A stretch of 64,000 nt of DNA from Microthyrium microscopicum (GCA_010405405.1 MU004245.1:437256-501255); one strand, 5' to 3'; shown: positions 1 through 64,000, counted from the first letter of the stretch. A program made the numbers and translations. Notes: generated by a model not told the origin, from the letters alone.

Positions 1-305
1 TAAATCAAAAGCTGGCAGTATATATATCAATTATGCATCGCAAGAAGCTCGACAGCTTGTATTATAAAAAAAAGTGTAGCCTCGGATCCTCGGATGGATG
101 ACGCGCGCATAAATTGCAAACATTGAAATGAGGCTCTGCGGCACACGGCATGCCGATCCTGCCATCTCGGTCCGTGGCTATTTTTACTACACCCGTCGAT
201 TCCAGAATCCTCTTCTTCCAAGCTTTATCCCGTCCTTCTATTCCTTCTGCTGAACGACTATAGACTGAGCCTCGCAAGCAAGCGAATCTATCCACCTTCG
301 AAGAA

Positions 306-8792: not shown

Positions 8793-11284
8793 TTATTCCT
8801 CACCCGGCTTGAACGACGCCGCAATGCTGAACCAACCTTCTGGCACACCTGCCAATGGGTTCCCATCTGAATCTATCGCCTTGTACGACAAGTTCCAACC
8901 GTTGACTTCGAAAACAACCCAAAATTCAACCGCGTAGTATCGCCGACCTGCATTGCCTTCAATAGGCACCAATGTTTCTTCCAACAGTGACAGATCGAGA
9001 TTCATCGTTGCAATACACTCGGAGTTTTCTGACGAAAGTTAGATTCCAGACCAGCATTGATGCGGATTCTCTTACCATTTTCGGCATGGTCGACAGGATA
9101 TGAATCCTCTTGAGTTGTGTACGACACGAAAATCTCCTCGTTCCAACACCATTGTTTCTTGTATTCTTCCGGATCGATATCGCAGTGAATGATTCGCTCC
9201 ATGTGCATTGTATATTCGCGAGTTTCGGTTGTAATCTCTTGGCCCTAGTGGATTGTGGTCATGTTAGTAGCTGCAACGTAATGTGGTGTTGAAAGTGGTG
9301 CGCTATCTTACCTTTTTGTAAATCCAGCAGATGAGATTTTCGACGTACTCCTTGCCAGTCAACTCGCACTCTTCTACCTTTTCGGTATCGCGCGCATCCA
9401 CATGGGTTTGTTTTGACCCGTCAAATTCCTCACTGATCTTCAAGCCATAACTGCACTGCATTTTCCGGGCCGGGGCCTTCTCCCAATTCAAGAAGGCCAG
9501 AATTGCTCCTCGAGATGCTGCAACTCCCGGCGAATCACTGCAAGTCATTAGCTCACTTCTCCAGCATGATAGCTATGCGCGACATACCTTATAGAGGGAA
9601 CTAGTACTGGAATTGACGGCCAGTTATGGGAAGCCACCTTTTTCGCTAGCTCTCCTTCGATGAAAGCTTTGATGACAGTCGATCGCCCAGCACCACCGGC
9701 AAGCACCAATTTCTTAGTCTAGGTTAGTCCAAGCCCGCAAACAGAACGTTCAACTTACCGTGACAGTTGGCTTTCCGTTCTTATTAGCTGTTTTTCGCAG
9801 CATTGTCTCTGCAAGCTCCCAAGTACCTTCACAAGTATGGCGATGGATGTCTTGAAACTCGTTCCTGTTTGTTGTCAGTGAAGCTCGTATACATGAAGGA
9901 GGACATTACAGCGTGAAAAACATTTTCGAGGGTCCGAAATTGTGTTTCTTGTTCTCCCTCAGGCTCGCTGCAACCAAACTTTCGAGCGTCGTGTCCGGCG
10001 GACGATCGTCGTCCATTGTGAATTTGACTGTACGCTTTGTGTAACTCTCAAATTGGCTCATGAGTTCGGCTTCAATCACAAGATGAACTAAGCTAGCCTG
10101 AACCGCATTGCCATAGAACTTCGCGTGTTGCAATCGTTGTCGACAAAGTTCTCGGAAATGATTATTGACGTACGCGGAGCCACATAATCTACCTATGTTT
10201 CGCATTAGCAATTGGATGGTAGAAAGGCTGGGGTCTTGTAATTTTACCTTCGCCAGTGATTGTTTCCTGCTGCAATTTCATTTTGCCTTGCGCGTTCTGG
10301 ACGACGAATACAATCGCATCAACTGTTCCACTGCCAACATCTAGCAGAAGCATCCGGTCGCGATCCTGCACTGCTTTAGTAATGGACCATCAAAACCCAT
10401 GATACACCTACCCTAACAAAACCAACATTGTTCTCGTCTTCAAGTATGGAGAAAGCGTGAGCTTCTGGCTCAGAAGCGAAGAACAACCCATGGACTTGCG
10501 AAGAGAATCCATCTTCCCGTTGCTGAACGTTGGGAGAGTCAATGTTGTACAATGCCCGAGCGAAAGCATCATGCATTTTCTGAAGCGCTCTATGTTCCCA
10601 CACAGGTGGAACAGCGATATCAAAGTACACTTTATCTCCCTTGGTGTAGCCAGTTTGAGCTTGAGTCTTTTCAAGTTCTGCCAGGCAGTGTTCGATCCAT
10701 GCAGTTAGAAAATGCTCAATGGCTTGCGGTTGTTGACTGGTATCTTTGAAAACCTCCCTCAATTGGCGCTCGATGTTATCGCGGAAGTCTTTTGTGTGTT
10801 CGGTGTTATCGAGGAGAAGTTTGAAGTTCCGAATGATTCCTTTTTCAACCTCCGCTTGAGACCATAATGATGTTGAGTTTTTCACCTTCTTCAACTCGTT
10901 TTGCACTTCGTACCCCCAAAACACTTTCGGTACAACTCGGTTTCCTTCTCGCAAATATACAAAGAGTATCTCTGTTGGCACTTCATTCACTCTTCCGCCT
11001 TGAAGGTCTGCTTGCTGGTTCTCTGGATAGTTCTGTATCGGCTTGATTCGGGTTGGGTTTATTTTGGTAATATCTTCTCCTTCATCGAGAACAAGATAGC
11101 ATGCGCTAGAGTAGCCTGTTCCAAAGTCCAGGCCAATATGAATGATCTTTTTTGTTGCAGGTATCGTACTGATCGGACCTCTGCGACCTGAATTGGCTTT
11201 CGCAATGCGGTTGCGACCCTTGCCTGAAACTCGAGACGCTTTTGATTTTCCTGCCTTACCGCGCTGATAATTTCGCGGTGCCAT
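8793..11284 (-). CDS. Divergent Hsp70-like (HSPA12-type) actin-fold ATPase, multi-exon (about 7 introns)
   Basis: Ordered Hsp70 NBD motifs across exons: IGLDFGTGYS, IAVPPVW, FASEPEAHA, LLLDVGSGTVD, GRLCGSAYVN, KLVLAGGAGRS and GVAASRGAIL. Short GT-AG introns with CTAAC/CTGAC branch sites separate the ORF fragments. No canonical substrate-binding domain or EEVD tail. Confidence 0.85.
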
Positions 11285-11927
11285 GGTCTCAACCTCCCCA
11301 AAGCACGCGGGTGGTGGCAAAGAAAATGCTGAGGACGAAAATCGAGAATGGCGTTTAGAGAATGACAACTACTGAGTTGCTGAAAGCGGCGAAAGAGAAC
11401 AGAGAGAGGGATGGGCAATTCAGAAATGAGGAGAAATTGAAGAACGAAGGATGAAGGTGGTGGGAGAATGAAATTTGAAATAAAAATTCAAGTGGGTGGT
11501 GATTTGTTGCTGGTGACTGCCAGTTCATAGCGACTGGCAACTGCCTAGACAATCCATGCTGAGGTGGTAGAAGGAAAGGCACGAGGACAGCAGACCGTTT
11601 CCTGCTTCATTTAGTATGGAAGGTGTAATGTAGAATGTGGAAAGCGCCAACTGCCCCCTAAGCCGATACAGTAGGCGCAAGACTAAAAGGAATGGGAAGT
11701 CGCGACTCGCGAGGTTGCAAGTTACAACATTGAAGTTGCATTAGGTCATTAGCCTCAAACTGTTGCCTTGGACATTTTACTTCACCTCAAATGTTCCATT
11801 GAAAACATTAGGTATCGAACAATAAGAGCTGATTGAATAAGACCCCTTCAATAGCTGCTCTACATGTGTACATTCAGAAATCAGGTTTAAAGCTCAAACA
11901 CAAGTACAAATTCGAAATCAAGTACAG

Positions 11928-12023
11928 ACAATAAGGCTACGCACAATCGAAGCACAAACAATAAGACCACGCACAATCAAAAAACAAACAATAAGACCAC
12001 GCACAATCAAAACACAAACAATC
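11928..12023. repeat. 30-bp tandem repeat, 3 copies plus a partial copy
   Basis: ACAATAAGGCTACGCACAATCGAAGCACAA / ACAATAAGACCACGCACAATCAAAAAACAA / ACAATAAGACCACGCACAATCAAAACACAA start at 11928, 11958 and 11988. Confidence 0.95.
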
Positions 12024-12150
12024 AGATTCCAGGCCTCGCCAGTCTCGCATCATTTCAACTTCCCCCTTTACCATTACAATCAGCAAGATCTACCTCTTTG
12101 CTACCATCGACGTTCCATTACCAACTACAGCACAGCTATCATCCGTCAAA

Positions 12151-14408
12151 ATGGCGACTCGACGCAACGCGGACCGAACTGAAAAAGCACCCAGTAATCT
12201 CAAAGCATCTGCGCCAAACGTCAGCGTTCGACACGACTGGACTCCCGCAGAGACGGCCTGCCTGCTTCTTTGGTCTGAAGCGTGTGAAGACAGGGATGAG
12301 GACTTCCTTGACACTGTGCTTGGCCATTTGCAAGAAAATTTCCCAGAACAAACCTTCAATCAAAAGACAATCATTCGCAGACTGGTAACTGTTTGGAAAG
12401 GCGCCGGACGGTCCAGAACAACTGCGGATGACACAAAGTCAGAAGGAATCAATTGGCTAGATTGGACGAAGTTTCGTGCCAAGTATCCAGCGGTGCATGC
12501 GGAGCTTGAGGCTAGACGAGAGGCATATGCTCGATCTCAAGCTCAAGCCTCCTCAGAACAATCATCAGATTCGGGTTTGGAAGGAGACTCGCCAGAAGAA
12601 GCTACAGAAAGCGGCCCATCGGGTCAGATGTCCAAGTCTTCCAAGCGCAAAAGCCATGTCTTCGAAACTGAGCACGAATCACTCAACGTGAGTGGACAGA
12701 TTGCCACAGTCTTTGGAAAAAGAATTGTACTAACTTCACGTACTAGGAACCGGCACCAAAACGCCTACGAACTCGCAGTGAACCGGCTGAAGCCCGGAGT
12801 CAAATTCTTGGTACCAAACCCTCGCAATCTGCTTCACACGAAACGCCTGCGAGCCCCAAGACCGTGGCTCCCAAACGTACCATTCAAGATGTCGACACGG
12901 ACAGTCAACTTTCTGAAGTAAGCACGCCTCCGATTCAACAAAGTTTGCACGAATTGGCTGACAAGATCTAGGAACCCGGCCCGAAACGCGTACGATCTGC
13001 GGATTCCACACCCAAGCCTGCTCCTCAGATCATGGCCTATAAGCCACAGAATCAGAATACTTCGGACTCTACAGCGGTAGGTGGCCCAAGCCAGCATGTT
13101 CCTACTGCAGCGAGTTCCTCCTTTCAACGAAAAACTGCTCAAACGTCCAAGATTGGACTATCTGACCTCGAAAAACAGCTAAAGGTTGAAAATCGCCGCC
13201 TGAAGACATCCCTAGCGAGCGCAAACATACGCGTGTTCGAATTGGAGAAGAAGCTGCAGAGATACGAAAGATACGAACGGTTTGAGCACGATACTGAAAG
13301 ATTTGCGAAAAACTACACGCCGAGCTCAGCCGGAGCAGCCGACGACCTACAAAAGTCTTATCAGGAACAGAATTCTCTTTTGGACCAGCGGAGAGAACAC
13401 CGACAGGTCTGTCCTCTGCAAAATTCAAGATTCACTCAATACTTGGATTTTGCGACATATCGTGCCGATTTTTTTGGAATTCAGCAACACCAAGAGTCTG
13501 CTTTTGAGAGAGAATTCACGGTGGAGACTCCGCAAACTCCTTTGACTTTGACTAGTTTCTACGATATTGACCTGTTCCTCAAGGACTATGGTCTCGTTAC
13601 GGGTCAAAGTGATTGGAGTCGTGTTTTGCGAATGATTAAAGAGATAAAGCCAAGTGCCCTTCTCCGTGCCATCATGAGCCAAATTTTGCGCGAAGAGATC
13701 TTTGAAACTTCTTTCCCGAATGCTGAGTCGACGAGATCAAAAGAGTCAGTGTTCTTGTATGAGATGTTGTTTTCGCAAGAGCGTAAGTCAGCCTCGCCAC
13801 TTCACATGGTCAAAGTACTTACAATTGTCGTAGATGGTTTTGCGTCGGTGTACAATCACGACTCCCTTCTTCAAGCGCACTTAGTCAAGAGCAAGTCTTT
13901 CAACTCTGACATTCTTCCCTCTCGAGCACAAGAGGTAATGGCCACCTTTCTTGAGAAGTTGCAAGAACTTTTCCCAGATACCAACGTGGATGCTTTCTCC
14001 GAAATCAACTTGAGGCTGTGCCAGTCGGTCACAGAGGAGTGTCTGAAGCTCAAAAGTGAGCTCAATCTTACACGACGACAATTTGAGCTACGCTCCTATC
14101 CAATGGATACGGCCTTTGATGCAAGCTGTATGCGAGCACAGACTGCCGAAGGAATTCCTCTAGGTATGCAACAAGCTGAGGACCTTAAAGGTGCCAAGGT
14201 CAAGCTTTGTTTGTTCCCAGCAATCTACGTCTATCCCCCAGATCTTTCGGTAAAGGCAGCAATGTCATCGGAGGACAAAGACTATGGTAATCATGATCTA
14301 CCAATGCACAGAGCAATGGTTCCACTCCAGTGTTTCGCCCAGTCACTCACTGCGGAGGAGAAGAAAAAAGGAATCTTGATGGAAAAAGGGATGGTAGTAT
14401 TGCAGTAG
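12151..14408 (+). CDS. Uncharacterised protein: Myb/SANT-like N-terminus, coiled coil, C-terminal GrpE/MIEAP-like domain (inferred); 3 exons
   Basis: Exon 1 is 12151-12687. Intron 12688-12746 (GTGAGT..CTAAC..TAG) joins in frame to the 13032 ORF, and intron 13783-13833 (GTAAGT..TAG) follows. Heptad segment LSDLEKQLKVENRRLKTSLASANIRVFELEKKL. Clear paralog at 62657-64000. Confidence 0.8.
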
Positions 14409-56452: not shown

Positions 56453-57503
56453 TCAACTGGATGACTCGTTCGCGTTGTCGGTTGTGCGTGGGCGATAGCG
56501 TTCTCCGAAAAGTCGAACTCGAGCTGATGATCTACAGCTATCGCAATAGAGCATGCGACTCACGCTGGGAAATTCTGTCTCGAGGTCGGAGTTCTCTTTG
56601 TAGTTGTTGTTTTGTTGACAAGACTGGCATCTATGGGGACCATGATCAAACGGATCCGTATAGCCTACACCGCCGTGCCAGAAGAGATCGCTCAAAATCT
56701 GAGCAGAAAGGCGGCTAGCATGTCCTTGCTTAAGCATGTCGAGGAAGGAAGAATAGCCCATGAGCTCTGCAAGGTTAATTTTGATGTGATAGAGATATTG
56801 ACCTGTCAGATAGTGATCAAAGCCACACACCTGAAGCGAACGTGATGTCGCTTCGATCAATGCTTGAAGTTGGTCGTCATGGCCGTGAAAGATGTAGGAA
56901 TCTCTGAAGTTGTATCCAATGTCATCTTCTATTGGCCCTAGGAGCGCATCCTCCATTTCCGCGACTTGTAGGTATTCAGCGGTAGCAACTAGATCGGCTA
57001 GGATAACACCAAAGTTTCTAGTGCCATAATCTGGAGAGTGTTCTGCAAGTCGTTAGCATAAGATTGCCACTGTAGCCAGACGCAAATAGTAAAAACCGAA
57101 CGTGCCGGATGGCAAACAGAGAATTTGAAAACGCTTAGGAGGCGCATCTTACCGAGACCTCTACCCTCCCGTAGAATGTCTTCAGAGTCGTACATCCATT
57201 TCAGAACTCGGTTGACAGCAGCGGGCTTCAGGTCTTCCATTTCGATGGAGCTTTTGTTCAGATTCTGGAAGAGGGATAAGATTAGCTCAGTAAAGACTTG
57301 GTCGATTGTGCACCTTACTGCTGCAGAGCCGGTAAGTTGCTCACGGAAGTATCCAGAGTGCGCGCATAGAATAACCTTGTGAACCGGCCAAGATCGACTT
57401 CCACATCGCAGCGTGATGTCGCTGAGCTCGCCGCTCTCAAAGAACCTGTTTGTTGTCAGTGTGAGAAGGAGTCCCATGCTCACTTGTAGAGCCTTACTGC
57501 CAT
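56453..57503 (-). CDS. BTB/POZ domain protein, multi-exon
   Basis: MAVRLYK|FFESGELSDITLRCGSRSWPVHKVILCAHSGYFREQL..IEMEDLKPAAVNRVLKWMY..ATAEYLQVAEMEDALL, with C-terminal CQSC..YCDSC. Confidence 0.82.
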
Positions 57504-58596
57504 TTGCCGGTGCTTTTGTCACTAGCAAGCAGTGATACTGCTTCGGCGCTTAGGTAGGTTGACATTGAAGAAAAGAAGCGAAGAAGCTGATGAAGAACTA
57601 AAGTAGCGCACGCGGTGGTGCAGTCGTCGGGCTTTTGAATGTTGTAGGAATAGCCGGTATGTCGATTTCTCGTGGTCTCTTGGTGCTGAAGGAATTTAAG
57701 AAAGCTGAGTATGGCGAAGTCGTAGTCACAGAAGAGGGGCAGGCAGGCAAAAGACGCGGTGACGAATTGGGCGTGTAGGAAGTAGTTGCTGCCCAGATAT
57801 CGCGTCGTTTTGGTTAGGAAGGTAATTGGCTAACCATAATAAGACAACGGTCTGTTCGGGCTACAGATGTTCCCATCTAATGTCTAAAGTTACGATCATT
57901 GGAAGTCAACATCTGACCATCAGAGCATAACCTGCACAAAATTTACAACGTGGCCTAAGGTTCTTGGTCATAGATACTGAAACGGTAACGGCGGGTGAGG
58001 CCTAGCGAGGCATATATTCTTACAAAGTGAGAATTTATGAGGCATCGCAAGTGTCCTAGATTATTTGACGTAGATAGGCAGCAAGCTCGATCCACGAATG
58101 CTCCTCGCAATATTACTAGCGCATTAATAGTTCAATTCATCCAATGCGGTGAACTAACAAGGCAAACATTAAATGATCAGGTCGCCACGACTGACATTTC
58201 TCATCAGCTCACAGTCTCGGCAGGCTGAGACCCTCTATCCTTCTATTGAGCATTTCCGTTATGATCTAGCGCAAAGAACACTGAGAAATTCATCATGCGT
58301 GAGAGGAAGCAAAACACATGCTCTGACCCAATAGACGGCGAGCAGCAGTCTGTTGATCTTGTCCATTGTATTTCGTTGTAGTCTCACAGTCCTAAGAGTT
58401 GCAGACGTGTAGTTAAAAATGTGACAGGGTTCATGGATAAAGGAAGTCGAAGCAAGCTTTCGGCCCGAAAAAGAGCAATTCGGCAAGGTTGCGGACCGAG
58501 GAACAATCCCAAGCTTCAAAATCTCGCGACGGTCAATCTCCATGTTGAGAACATCATATCCATCTGGCAACCAATTGACCTTCCTCAGCGGCCGAA

Positions 58597-60749
58597 ATGC
58601 TGCGTTCCTCCCTGCTCCGAGCCTCTCGCCCCAATTTTCGGGCGATTGAGCTGCGAAACCGACCAGATCTGGTCCAGGGATATATTATAGCTTCTTTCGC
58701 ATCTGGTCGAGTATGATTTCACCCCAGCTCCTCAAATCCAGCGCAACAGCTTGACGAGTATCTGTCAAATCAATTGAAATGAGCTGACCTGTCAACATAG
58801 AGACTCTATTCGGGGAAGAAGCCAGACGAGACTATTCTTCCAGGATCACAATCAGCACAGCAAGCTGCCAAAGTACCTTCTCCTCCAGAGCTTGTCGCCT
58901 CGATAACTCCAAATCAAAAACCTCCGCCTCCTCAAAGTGTTCCAAAAGTCCCTACTTCTCCACAAGAATTAGCGCCGGTGGCATCTGCAGGAACTACACC
59001 CAATCCTGCTTCTCCCACGCCTACTCTGGGAACCGGAACCGCGCAGGTTGCACCACCACCCGTTCCTCCAAAGAAGAAGAGTCGCTTTTTCCGCTACTTG
59101 CTCAATCTTATAATCTTAAGCACCTTAACATACGGAATTGGCGTGTACTACGCACTCACTTCAGACAACTGGCATGATTTCTTCACTGAATATGTGCCAT
59201 TCGGTGAGGAAGCTGTAGCATATTTTGAAGAGCGAGAATTTCGGCGCAGGTTCCTCAATCGCCCGCAGCAAGAGTCTAGACTACATCCTCAAGTTCGCGG
59301 AGAGGCGAAGGTCACAATTCCTGGCCGTGCCGGCGTAGAAGTCAAGAAGGTTGAGGAAGCCGATTTAGCATCCAAGGGCCGTCACACTAGCGCAGTGGAG
59401 CCACACCCTCAAACCGTTGGTGCCCAGCAGAAAGACAGAGAGATCAGCAAGCCGACAGAATCAAGCACGCATCAACTCCTTCCAAAGGATTCCAAGCCTG
59501 CGCCTAAGGAGCAACCCAAGCCAACAGCTTCAAAATCTGCCGCCGAACCTGCCACCACACCTGCAAAAGTTCAACCTGTTGAGCATATTGATAATTTGCA
59601 AATTGCCCAGGCTTCTGAGCCTGTTGTCCAGGACATAGTCAAGATACTCAATGACCTCATCACCGTCGTCAATGCCGACAATGCCGGAAACAAATACGGC
59701 TCTGCCATCGACAAGGCAAAGGGCGGACTCTCCAAAGTTGTTTCTGATCTAGAAATTCTTAAGCAATCGCAAAAGAAGCAAGCCGATGAACAGGTCAAGG
59801 GTCTTCACGAAGAATTTGACAAGGCTGCAAAGGAATTGCTTCGCAGATCAGAAGAACACGTACAAGAAATGGAAATTCGCTGGCGAGAGGAGTACGAAAA
59901 TGAACGGTCCAGCATGGCCAAGCAACTCGAATCCAAGCTAGACGCCGAACTCTCCACTGCCAAACAAGTCTACGATCAAATGCTTGAGAATGAACTCTTG
60001 AAGCAATCAATCGCGTTGCGCAAGAACTTCGCCAAGTCTGTTCAAGATACTGTCGAAGCTGAGCGAGATGGCCGTTTGAGTAAACTTGATGAGCTAAGCT
60101 CTAATGTTTCAGAGCTGCAGCGCTTGACTGGCGAATGGAACTCGGTCGTCGACTCTACCATGCACACTCAACATCTCCTCGTCGCTGTTGAGGCCGTGCG
60201 AGCAAACCTTGAAACAGCAGATCGTCCTCGCCCATTTATCTCCGAACTTGCAGCACTGAAAGAGGTGGCCGCTGAAAATCCACTTGTCAATGCCGCAATC
60301 GCCTCCATTAATCCCACTGCTTACCAAAAAGGCATTCAAGCTCCAGGCCAACTGATTGATAGATTCCGCCGAGTGTCATCAGAAGTCCGCAAGGCTGCTC
60401 TTCTTCCCGACAACGCTGGCGTCACTAGTCACGCGGCATCTTATCTCCTCAGTAAGGTCATGTTCAAGAAGGGTGGACTTCCAGTTGGTGATGACGTAGA
60501 GAGCATTCTCACTCGGGCCGAGGCACTTCTTGAGGAGGGCAATCTCGAACAAGCTGTTCGTGAGGTCAACTCTCTCACTGGATGGGCCAAGACTCTCAGT
60601 CGAGATTGGCTTGGGGAGTGTAGACGAGTTCTAGAGGTACAGCAGGCGCTCGATGTAAGTCTAGTCACATCCATTCGAACTTCACGGTTGCTAATCGGTG
60701 ACAGGTCATTTCAACGGAAGCTCGGCTGCGTAGTTTACTTGTAGAATAA
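58597..60749 (+). CDS. MIC60: MICOS complex subunit Mic60 (mitofilin/Fcj1), 3 exons
   Basis: Presequence MLRSSLLRASRP, TM followed by SDNWHDFFTEYVPFGEE, coiled coil, and mitofilin domain LIDRFRRVSSEVRKAALLP..GDDVESILTRAE..VNSLTGWAKTLSRDWL. Last exon VISTEARLRSLLVE*. Confidence 0.96.
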
Positions 60750-61230
60750 AACGGCTGGCTTCAAAGACGGGAGTTTGGCGATGTCCATTGTAAGCTATAA
60801 TTCAGTCTTGCTTGGTGAGCGCTTAGATACTTGTTTATGTAGATTTTGATATCGACCTCCTACGACTTCGCCCACCTCGCTTGTTTAGCCACATGGCTTC
60901 TATATCATAAATCTTGGAATGCTCAGGTCCGTTGTGCAGGTAGGTGATGTTTAAGGCAAGTGACATTTGAGGCAAGCGCCCTTACCATCTTGGGCAAGCA
61001 CGCTCTTTCACCTGCCTATGTTTCACTGAACAGAGCCATAAAATTGTATCGTTCTTTGCTAGAGGTCCTGCGTAGACGTGTTTCCATCCTCTGCCACCAT
61101 CGCACTCTCTACCATCTTCCCACAAGCGATCAGAAAAAAATAGACAAGCCGTTGCCAACAACTCAAAGCTCTCAGCGCCTCCCGCTGCCTCCCATCAAGA
61201 TACCGGCCAACGCAGCAGCGCAACGAAGAA

Positions 61231-62142
61231 ATGGATAGCACTAACACCACCTGGCGACAAACCTATGCACGACAAGAACGCACACGCCCCTGCTTCAATC
61301 TTGATGACTGCAACTTGGGGACAGCCTGCCCACTCGACGCTGGACAATTTGCCGGCCAGTCGCAGAGCTCGCTTGGCCAGCTCGCTCGGTTCCCACTTGA
61401 AACTCTGACGGAAATTCTCCTTGGCTTAGACATTCCTACCCTGATTGCGTTTCGACAGGTGAATCGATATGCAATGAGCGCCGTTGACTCCCTCCCGCCT
61501 TATCGCAAATTACGACAACAATGCCCGAACATCCTGCGCGCCGCACTTTGCGTACAGGCAAGAGGTTACGACCTGCGGACTCTTGAGGAGACTCTCCAAA
61601 CTTCCAAATGTTCCCAATGTTCTGAATTCGGCGACTATCTGTACATGATAACCTGCCGTCGGATATGCTACCCATGCTTCGACGACTACGCAAATCGCGA
61701 ATACTACACACCCATTCATCAGGCACATGTCTTGCGATGTGGGATCTCCAAAAAAGATCTGAAACATCTTCCAAGTATTCAAAGCCTTCCAGGCTGGTAC
61801 GGCGATTATGAATACAACAACTACACATATTTCCACACTAGACGATATAGGCTATTCGATCGCACCGCTTGCAGCTCAGCACCGAACTGGAGCCATTCAA
61901 AGCACCTCTCCGCAAAGGAAAGCGACAATCTCACCAAAATCAAGAGATATAGTTGCATTATCTCAGCACCATACCTTGGATTAGGAAACAAGGCCGATTG
62001 GGGTGCAAGCTGTGCTGGATGCCGTCAATCGGAAGTACTTTACACCGAAGAGGGACTACATGATCACTTCGAGAAGTTAGGCCCAGTTGGCCGGGGAACT
62101 AACAACTGGCCCTGCCATATCTCGCCCACGGTTCAAGAATGA
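61231..62142 (+). CDS. F-box domain protein with a Cys-rich segment
   Basis: SSLGQLARFPLETLTEILLGLDIPTLIAFRQVNR F-box, followed by CSQCSEFGDYLYMITCRRICYPC. Confidence 0.88.
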   Translation: MDSTNTTWRQTYARQERTRPCFNLDDCNLGTACPLDAGQFAGQSQSSLGQLARFPLETLTEILLGLDIPTLIAFRQVNRYAMSAVDSLPPYRKLRQQCPNILRAALCVQARGYDLRTLEETLQTSKCSQCSEFGDYLYMITCRRICYPCFDDYANREYYTPIHQAHVLRCGISKKDLKHLPSIQSLPGWYGDYEYNNYTYFHTRRYRLFDRTACSSAPNWSHSKHLSAKESDNLTKIKRYSCIISAPYLGLGNKADWGASCAGCRQSEVLYTEEGLHDHFEKLGPVGRGTNNWPCHISPTVQE

Positions 62143-62656: not shown

Positions 62657-64000
62657 TCACTGCAATAGCACCATCGCTTTTGCAATCAGAATCCCGTTTT
62701 TCTTCTCTTCTTGGGAGATCGAGGAAGGAAAACTTTGCAGCAAAACCAAGGCTTTCTCCAGTGGCAGACCGTCTGGACGGTCACCTTCCTTCGTCGACAA
62801 CATCGCCTCTTGCAATGACGAATCTGGGCTATAGTAGTACAGAGCTGGGAACAAACATAGACTGACTTTGCCATTCCGAAGCGCCTCGGATTGTAAATCT
62901 TCAAGATGATCTCCCTCAACATTCTGGGCCATCATACAAGTTGCATCGAACGGGGTATCGATCGGGAACAACCGGAGTTCACACTGCCACCGGTTGAGAT
63001 TGAGCTCGCCTTTAAATGACAAACACTTCTTATAAAGTGCTTGACAGTGTTCAAAATCAATTTCGCAAGATTGAAGCATTGCCGAGGTGGAGAATATGCC
63101 GTCGATTAGCTTGATAAAGGAAGCCTCTACCCCTTGCGCTTTGCTTGGTATAACTCTGTCTCTGAAGTCCTGGCTCTTTAGGATATGTTCGTGATAGAAA
63201 GAGTCCGCATGGAAAACCGAAGCAAATCCGTCTATATTAGACAGTTAGTGTCGAACAAAGCTTAAATGAAATGGAGAGGCTCACACTTGTTGGAGAATAA
63301 TGACTGAAAGTGCATCATAGACTCGTTGGATCTTGTTTGGCCAGGGCTTGGAAATGGTGTCTCAAATATCTCCTTTTTCAACACTTGACTCATGATGACG
63401 CACAAAATGTGAGCCGGCTTTGCAATGTCAATCAATTGCATGACTTGACTCCGAGAATTCCGGTCTGTAGCAAGACCAGTTCGAAAGAGAAAGTCAGACA
63501 TGGCGTGGAGCACTCCAATTGACAACTGATTCTGCGAATTCTGAGAAGTACGGCGACTTTTGAATGCTTTGCTTTGTGCGTCTTGAAGACTCTCAAACTC
63601 TTGCTGAATGTCCGTTCTAGTCATAGAAGGGTTGTATGTTCTGTTCAATAAAGGACAAACTCGAGAGTGCTCATTTTGTTGCTCGTCTTTAGCCATCGCT
63701 TGCCGATAATATTCCTTTGCAGCCTTAGCCGGGTCCGAGAGCTGGCTTGCAAAATCTGTGCTTTTCCGAAACAATTTCAGTTCATGTTCGTATCCTTGAT
63801 TCTTTCTTTCCAGTCTGAAGATTTGCATTTGGGCTTCTGCCATGTTTGCCTCCAGACTTTCAATGCGTGCTTGCTGTTCTTTACAGAGATCGACAAGGTT
63901 GCTTACTGAAGACTGGGCCATATGATGTAGGAAGGTTGAGCTAGCTGCGGTTGGTGGATTGATATTCGTGACGGCTGGTCGTGTGGAATTGAACAGAGTC
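62657..64000 (-). CDS. Paralog of the 12151-14408 coiled-coil / GrpE-like protein; 5' end lies beyond the window
   Basis: The frame is open from the window edge (PPTAASSTF vs VPTAASSSF). Shared blocks EHSRVCPL, IMSQVLKKEIFETPFP, GFASV, LKGELNL-type FKGELNLNR, DTPFDATCM, KVSLCLFPALY and KKNGILIAKAMVLLQ*. Intron 63284-63232. Confidence 0.85.

Follow-up and report, generated by a model that had tools for sequence, protein, structure and literature searches.

GrpE, which sets the nucleotide state of DnaK, is built from a long N-terminal helix, a helical hairpin or bundle, and a small C-terminal beta-domain (1DKG literature). Hsp70s of the HSPA12 type are found across animals, plants, fungi and bacteria; a 2026 review gives the function of HSPA12 as unknown and describes HSPA12 genes as massively expanded in bivalves (PMC13580251). 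Here, we analyzed a 64,000-nucleotide stretch of DNA from the fungus Microthyrium microscopicum (GCA_010405405.1 MU004245.1:437256-501255; hereafter, the window), in which a gene for an HSPA12-like Hsp70-fold ATPase (P0002) lies head to head with a gene for a coiled-coil protein (P0001, the partner). A first-pass annotation, made from the sequence alone, had proposed that the two form a dedicated module of an ATPase and its GrpE-like exchange factor. We found that the two genes are kept together in other fungi; this conserved linkage is our strongest result, and the inference that the two are a cognate pair is well supported by it. A conserved neighbor with a tail that may be GrpE-like would be a testable candidate cofactor for an HSPA12-type Hsp70. 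In the literature searched, we found no description of a fungal ATPase/partner pair of this kind.

The partner shares several traits with GrpE and its relatives Mge1 and GrpEL1 (PF01025): a long helix of the dimer type, a helical hairpin and a C-terminal six-stranded beta-domain in the predicted structure, a weak but colinear profile match that includes FD...(M/H).A, and a gene that is linked to the gene of an Hsp70-fold ATPase. It is, however, three to four times the length of GrpE and has an extra N-terminal helical domain and a 140-residue disordered linker. Moreover, it has a helical insert (395-583, ~190 residues) ahead of the beta-domain and an insert of 45 residues within it, lacks a PF01025 match, carries a Met for the usual His, and neighbors a candidate ATPase that is HSPA12-like rather than DnaK-like. 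The ATPase itself has, as do HSPA12A and HSPA12B, an Hsp70-type nucleotide-binding domain and a non-canonical C-terminal part, whereas P0002 misses the Pfam HSP70 family and its fungal relatives are just 26-29% identical to it. Lastly, MIEAP (SPATA18; PF16026), a p53-regulated human protein, and GIL1/IRKI (PF24994), which belong to plant gravitropism and receptor-kinase partners, resemble P0001 in that a conserved C-terminal domain comes after a coiled coil; in this comparison, made through structure clusters of the ESM Atlas and Pfam hidden Markov models (HMMs), no member of the partner family matched either HMM.

Linkage of the ATPase and partner genes

The DNA of the window is fungal, with introns, and database searches identified both P0001 and P0002 as annotated M. 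microscopicum proteins. Exon models, for which a script threaded the annotated proteins through the DNA with GT..AG introns, reproduced the two proteins letter for letter. The ATPase gene (8793..11284, minus strand, ATG at 11284) has eight exons (11284-10412, 10365-10248, 10192-9910, 9864-9759, 9718-9588, 9537-9312, 9244-9076 and 9028-8793) and encodes the 713-amino-acid P0002, which matched exon 1 at 100% identity. The partner gene (12151..14408, plus strand, ATG at 12151) has four (12151-12687, 12747-12917, 12972-13782 and 13834-14408) and encodes the 697-amino-acid P0001. P0001 is 96% identical to the raw plus-strand open reading frame (ORF) because the latter reads through intron 3 (13783-13833), which is 51 nt long, in frame and free of stop codons, and so gains 17 residues. 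The divergent arrangement described in the first-pass annotation, including a shared intergenic region of about 870 bp, was therefore borne out by the ORFs and exon models, and the region from ATG to ATG (11285..12150) measures 866 bp. The C-terminal pattern reported for the partner, ELRSYPMDTAFDASCMRAQ ... KVKLCLFPAIY ... GILMEKGMVVLQ-stop, was likewise found in the translation.

A search of metagenome contigs that used only the partner family (pattern VKLCLFPA) yielded 107 stretches and eight confirmed loci, and the flanks of these eight loci were then searched with the ATPase family. L001, L002, L004 and L008 are without upstream DNA. In all four loci with an upstream flank (L003, L005, L006 and L007), an Hsp70-like gene was present on the opposite strand, with a few hundred bases between its start and that of the partner gene, in the geometry seen in the window. 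L003 and L005 are 95% identical to each other, and L006 and L007 are 99-100% identical; the ATPase genes of the two groups share 78% nucleotide identity. Partner proteins from the metagenome loci are 24-32% identical to that of the window. A tblastx comparison of positions 1-24000 of the window with the metagenome loci gave no match beyond the two genes, and the flanking genes that could be named by Pfam are a short-chain dehydrogenase (SDR) and a GT4 glycosyltransferase in the window; those of L005 are different, namely a ricin-B lectin and an amino-acid permease. Outside the metagenomes, the Fusarium zealandicum proteins FZEAL_6134 (partner family) and FZEAL_6135 (ATPase family) have adjacent locus tags on one 64,658-base contig.

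Pairing is thus seen in the window, in a metagenome clade and in F. zealandicum. Two points temper this evidence: because the four metagenome loci belong to one broad lineage, the independent observations number only about three, and the F. zealandicum pair is known by its adjacency alone, not by its orientation. Nevertheless, since the pairing recurs in other fungi, the adjacency of the two genes is more than chance. That it is an accident or a relic of ancestral synteny with no function, and the tail motif of the partner a fortuitous resemblance, would be in keeping with the small number of independent lineages just named and with the marginal statistics of the GrpE comparison (P about 0.01, see below). 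However, the loci were found through the partner alone and yet carry the ATPase gene in four of four testable cases, what they have in common with the window is the pair and not the flanks, and the locus tags are adjacent in another fungal class as well; we therefore consider this explanation highly improbable. It is likely that the two proteins function together.

Alternatively, the two genes might share a bidirectional promoter and a pathway while their products never touch, the adjacency being retained since splitting the regulatory region would harm both genes. The head-to-head arrangement with a short intergenic region, found in the window as well as in L003, L005, L006 and L007, fits such an explanation. 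By contrast, the pairing has outlasted divergence to ~24-32% identity in the partner and 26-29% in the ATPase, as well as a change of flanks, and the partner tail resembles a known Hsp70-binding module. On balance, promoter sharing without contact appears quite improbable to us.

We also noted that in two of the metagenome loci (L006, 4685-6872, and L007, 7069-9256) the homologue corresponds to two database proteins that lie end to end on the same strand, P0043 (N-terminal, 504 amino acids) and P0027 (C-terminal, 217 amino acids). These probably represent one gene that was divided at an intron by prokaryote-oriented gene callers.

The Hsp70-like ATPase

P0002 alone gave no Pfam match above noise and no sequence match in the PDB. 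Its relatives are 22 longer ascomycete proteins, many of which are named 'Hsp70 protein' by their sources, and the 18 of these that were aligned are 26-29% identical to P0002. A family profile of 19 proteins (P0002 and the 18 relatives) matched 102 Hsp70/DnaK chains in the PDB at E <= 1, the best match (E 2.9e-7) covering the second half of the nucleotide-binding domain. Furthermore, one relative, P0020, scored above the Pfam HSP70 cut-off (25.3 vs 20.6 bits), and NCBIfam gave weak DnaK/HscA matches for two ATPase relatives and nothing more. A single weak Cas8c row for P0002 in PADLOC was taken as chance. The Hsp70 fold that the first-pass annotation had assigned to the minus-strand gene is hence upheld by the family profile and by the motifs described next, but not by P0002 on its own.

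Motifs of the nucleotide site are conserved throughout the family. The phosphate-1 motif DFGT(T/G)(Y/F)S is present in 19 of 19 sequences, and the phosphate-2 motif LDxGxGTVD in all 15 that are fully lettered there (two others are gapped, and two end after LLDA). The adenosine motif GGxxxS occurs in each of the 18 sequences with letters at that position, and a SEPEA motif is also kept. Because these ATP-binding motifs are conserved, P0002 likely has a working nucleotide site. Judged by its sequence family, P0002 is an ATPase of the Hsp70 fold that has diverged but whose nucleotide-binding motifs are intact.

Next, we considered the HSPA12-type label given to P0002 in the first-pass annotation. 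The nearest structure cluster in the ESM Atlas is automatically named 'Heat shock 70 kDa protein 12A' (template-modeling (TM) score 0.69 by query and 0.76 by hit, 576 residues aligned), a chordate HSPA12A.1 cluster reaches 0.95 by features against P0002, and HSPA12-like clusters are present in all three kingdoms (animals, plants and fungi). Since the nearest clusters are named HSPA12A, the label is reasonable as a lead from Atlas neighbors. When the fungal ATPase profile was run against 401 Pseudomonadota genomes, no match was found at E <= 1e-10, in a search without a positive control.

The partner family and the possible likeness of its tail to GrpE

An exhaustive phmmer search of 1.84 billion representatives found 24 proteins of the partner family at E <= 0.001, P0001 included. 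The named members are from species that we place in the Dothideomycetes, Sordariomycetes and Leotiomycetes. The pair had been called lineage-specific in the first-pass annotation; this does not hold, because the partner family occurs in these three fungal classes. Other searches returned little: a word-indexed homologue search with the partner found only itself, PDB sequence searches with single proteins gave no match, PADLOC and NCBIfam gave no match for the partner, and no Pfam family scored above its cut-off in P0001, in the partner exons or in the 23 relatives.

A full-length AlphaFold2 (AF2) model of P0001 (predicted local distance difference test (pLDDT) 71), together with an alignment of 23 family sequences, was used to divide the protein into regions. 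An N-terminal helical domain (residues 30-140; 12238..12570, plus strand) with the motif WTxxE...FxxTV... was found in 13 of the 13 aligned members that have an N-terminal region, and was modeled with a pLDDT of 82-97 in most blocks; it weakly resembles the Timeless Myb-like DNA-binding repeat 6t9q_A (Z 6.5, root-mean-square deviation (rmsd) 2.3, 60 residues). The following linker (142-284) is disordered and basic, with PKRLR- and PKRVR-type clusters that, as sequences, look like nuclear localization signals. The long helix that had been proposed for the partner is indeed predicted, as coiled-coil helices at residues 286-350 and 358-387 (13119..13424, plus strand), and a structure search with VIA using the full 697-residue model returned only coiled-coil rows. 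Beyond it lies the helical part of the C-terminal domain (residues 395-583; 13446..14063, plus strand, from the AF2 models and the alignment), the last two long helices of which (~527-583) make a hairpin just before the beta-domain.

The putatively GrpE-like beta-domain (residues 589-697; 14079..14405, plus strand) is predicted to have six strands (589-696) and contains a helical and loop insert of ~45 residues. Its family signature is FDxxxM, V(K/S)LCLFPA(L/I)Y and KAxV(L/V)L. The tail is the most conserved region of the partner: K580, M606, C632, P635 and V694 are invariant in the 23 sequences, and F601 and A636 are nearly so. Folding the last exon alone (window 13836-14405, corresponding to P0001 508-697, with 23 relatives) gave a 190-residue tail model with a pLDDT of 86 and six strands identical to those of the full model. 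The architecture known from GrpE, with helices (286-387), a hairpin (~527-583) and strands (589-696) that run to the end of the protein at 697, is therefore present in the AF2 models.

The first-pass annotation had suggested comparing a predicted structure of the tail with GrpE. In a VIA search of the 190-residue tail model against 48,161 chains, human GrpEL1 (9bls_B) ranked fourth, with a Z of 5.4, an rmsd of 7.6 and 92 residues aligned (model 30..190 to chain 117..214), and E. coli GrpE (1dkg_B) ranked 33rd, with a Z of 4.6, an rmsd of 5.8 and 75 residues aligned (model 59..190 to chain 116..193). Among the best 50 of the 48,161 chains, these two GrpE rows were the only ones that reached the final strands; the remaining rows align helices. 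A second look with VIA superposed model 82..190 on residues 138..193 of 1dkg_A, which we take to be the GrpE beta-domain, at an rmsd of 2.7 Å over 51 residues (Z 3.6).

Profiles were compared as well. A GrpE alignment of 31 sequences was assembled, comprising E. coli grpE plus 30 genes of Pseudomonadota that are 31-62% identical to it, and hhalign paired the partner profile with this alignment locally over 35 columns (P 0.011, probability 4%). In this pairing, FELRSYPM-DTAFDASCM is set against GVEVIAETNVPLDPNVH, so that FD and A are aligned and Met stands for His; the register is that of the first-pass annotation and lies within about two residues of the structural one. As controls, a reversed GrpE alignment gave a P of 0.2, and 2 of 150 column shuffles reached the observed score. 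Moreover, the top PDB sequence match of the partner-family profile was to GrpE itself (4ani_A, E 0.0023), colinear with the coiled coil.

A number of observations weigh against a GrpE-like tail. All of the Z scores are below 8, under the level at which the tool is reliable, and Foldseek found no PDB match at E <= 0.001 with either the full or the 190-residue model; its sole GrpE row, at rank 28 with an E of 5.2, was 9a81_A, an integrative model of GrpE with DnaK. The queries in both the VIA and the Foldseek searches were larger than the beta-domain, and other small beta folds may score a similar Z. The hhalign probability is just 4%, and neither global hhalign nor hhalign against the single E. 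coli GrpE gave a match. None of the 23 aligned partner members matched PF01025 even at E <= 10 (the family cut-off is 25.8 bits), so membership by HMM was not found. An HMM of the 31 GrpE sequences scored the partners no higher than reversed decoys, and only 2 of its 19 best stretches covered the FD motif. The 4ani_A match falls in the coiled coil, where composition alone gives matches. Finally, ~300 residues of the partner (N-domain, linker and helical insert) have no counterpart in GrpE, and the conserved M606 occupies the position of the His in most GrpEs. Overall, the proposed GrpE-like tail retains weak support from structural rows and the local hhalign pairing and none from HMMs or Foldseek. 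In the models the arrangement of parts follows that of GrpE, and several weak signals concur, each below the level at which it could stand alone; likeness of the tail to GrpE is plausible but unproven.

Together with the conserved linkage, these signals lead us to favor, tentatively, a dedicated module of filamentous ascomycetes in which an HSPA12-type ATPase and a GrpE-like cofactor are divergently transcribed. The partner would probably dimerize through its long coiled coil, and its hairpin and six-stranded beta-domain would have the build of the segment with which GrpE docks onto the nucleotide-binding domain of Hsp70. In this way, it could bind the nucleotide-binding domain of the neighboring ATPase and set its nucleotide state, either by promoting the exchange of ADP for ATP as GrpE does or by holding the ATPase in one state, while the N-domain and basic linker might bring the ATPase to its target. 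Were the exchange-factor idea to fail, the conserved pair would still be a new two-component system of filamentous fungi.

The Atlas neighbors of the C-terminal domain would fit a different kind of partner. For P0001 residues 440-697, fungal clusters without a Pfam family come first; GIL1_IRKI_C (language-model features 0.81; TM 0.51) and MIEAP (features 0.78; TM 0.49) are the closest of the named clusters, and the members of the MIEAP cluster are mostly molluscan. Both feature scores are under the 0.9 line below which a neighbor counts as a lead only, and PF16026 and PF24994 each matched 0 of the 23 aligned members, even at E <= 10. The resemblance to MIEAP/SPATA18 and IRKI/GIL1 that the first-pass annotation had recognized in the C-terminus accordingly survives as a lead from Atlas clusters and is not matched by the Pfam HMMs. 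In addition, a Basidiomycota cluster of 'G domain-containing proteins', 73% of whose members carry PF01926 (MMR_HSR1), has a TM of 0.56 against the C-terminal domain of the partner, which, on these models, may therefore also occur fused to a GTPase.

These neighbors bring up the possibility that both proteins cooperate, but with a partner of the MIEAP/GIL1 type that serves as client, adaptor or effector rather than as an exchange factor; for example, it could be a coiled-coil scaffold whose assembly or localization is remodeled by the Hsp70-like ATPase, with a GrpE-like tail that is convergent or too remote to matter. The named clusters nearest to the domain are indeed those of GIL1_IRKI_C and MIEAP, and not GrpE, and the GTPase-linked cluster suggests that the domain is not bound to Hsp70 alone. 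Sequence methods provide no link between partner and GrpE, and conservation of the pair fits a client or adaptor equally well. Set against this are the sub-threshold Atlas scores, the lack of PF16026 and PF24994 matches, and the finding that, among the best 50 rows, no solved structure other than GrpE aligns with the hairpin and the last strands together. We regard a client or adaptor role, the main alternative, as somewhat unlikely. The GrpE and MIEAP/GIL1 readings are, however, not exclusive, because MIEAP/GIL1-type domains could themselves be GrpE-like.

Taken further, the C-terminal domains of the fungal partner, MIEAP/SPATA18 and GIL1/IRKI might all be one GrpE-derived module, with HSPA12-type Hsp70s as the cognate ATPases throughout eukaryotes. 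We consider this extension unlikely. If true, the orphan HSPA12 chaperones would gain an exchange factor or adaptor of their own, and a mechanism would be at hand for MIEAP and GIL1; if the MIEAP/GIL1 link holds, the same logic would extend to a human protein regulated by p53 as well as to plant gravitropism and receptor-kinase partners. We found no link of MIEAP or GIL1 to GrpE or HSPA12 in the literature searched. The presence of HSPA12-like clusters in all three kingdoms would fit such an extension, and so would the mostly molluscan membership of the MIEAP cluster, given the massive expansion of HSPA12 genes in molluscs (PMC13580251).

Transcription, the intergenic region and neighboring genes

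A public sequencing run (X1), guessed to be RNA and covering 9 of 30 bins, provided contigs that match both the ATPase gene and the partner gene at 100% identity. One of these contigs omits 67 bases (9245-9311) that have GT..AG ends on the minus strand and correspond to an annotated intron of the ATPase gene; the introns of the partner gene are not spanned. Because this contig, from a run guessed to be RNA, is without the intron, the ATPase gene appears to be at least transcribed and spliced.

The intergenic region (11285..12150) is a putative bidirectional promoter. It contains a 30-bp tandem repeat, ACAAACAATAAGACCACGCACAATCAAAAC (11924..12026; 3.4 copies, 89% matches, Tandem Repeats Finder score 157), which ends ~125 bp upstream of the partner ATG and could be a regulatory array. 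Matches to the heat-shock element type GAAnnTTC numbered zero in the 866 bp, compared with a background of 0.78 per kb in the window, and the four intergenic regions searched for heat-shock elements held nothing more than single dimers. Since there are no heat-shock elements between the genes, we see no support for a heat-shock regulon. A role in allorecognition or immunity was set aside as well, no HET, NACHT or similar domain being found in the 28 flanking ORFs scanned. The roles in stress, nuclear regulation or allorecognition that had been suggested for the pair have no support in this analysis.

Another member of the partner family, P0024 (736 amino acids, 38% identical to P0001), is encoded in part at the end of the window (62660..64000, minus strand), 48 kb from the first partner gene. 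Its residues 308-736 are inside the window, and its 5' part and upstream neighbor lie past the window end. There is no second Hsp70-like gene within the 64-kb window; the upstream neighbor of P0024 beyond it could be one. Near P0024 are a BTB/POZ-domain ORF (56998-57549, minus strand), a mitofilin/Mic60 gene (58801-60741, plus strand, Pfam E 4.6e-139) and an F-box ORF (61144-62139, plus strand), for which we saw no link to the ATPase/partner pair. In Zopfia rhizophila, the partner paralogues P0025 and P0026 have GenBank accessions five numbers apart and are on the same 807,800-base contig, which suggests that partner paralogues are clustered in this fungus too.

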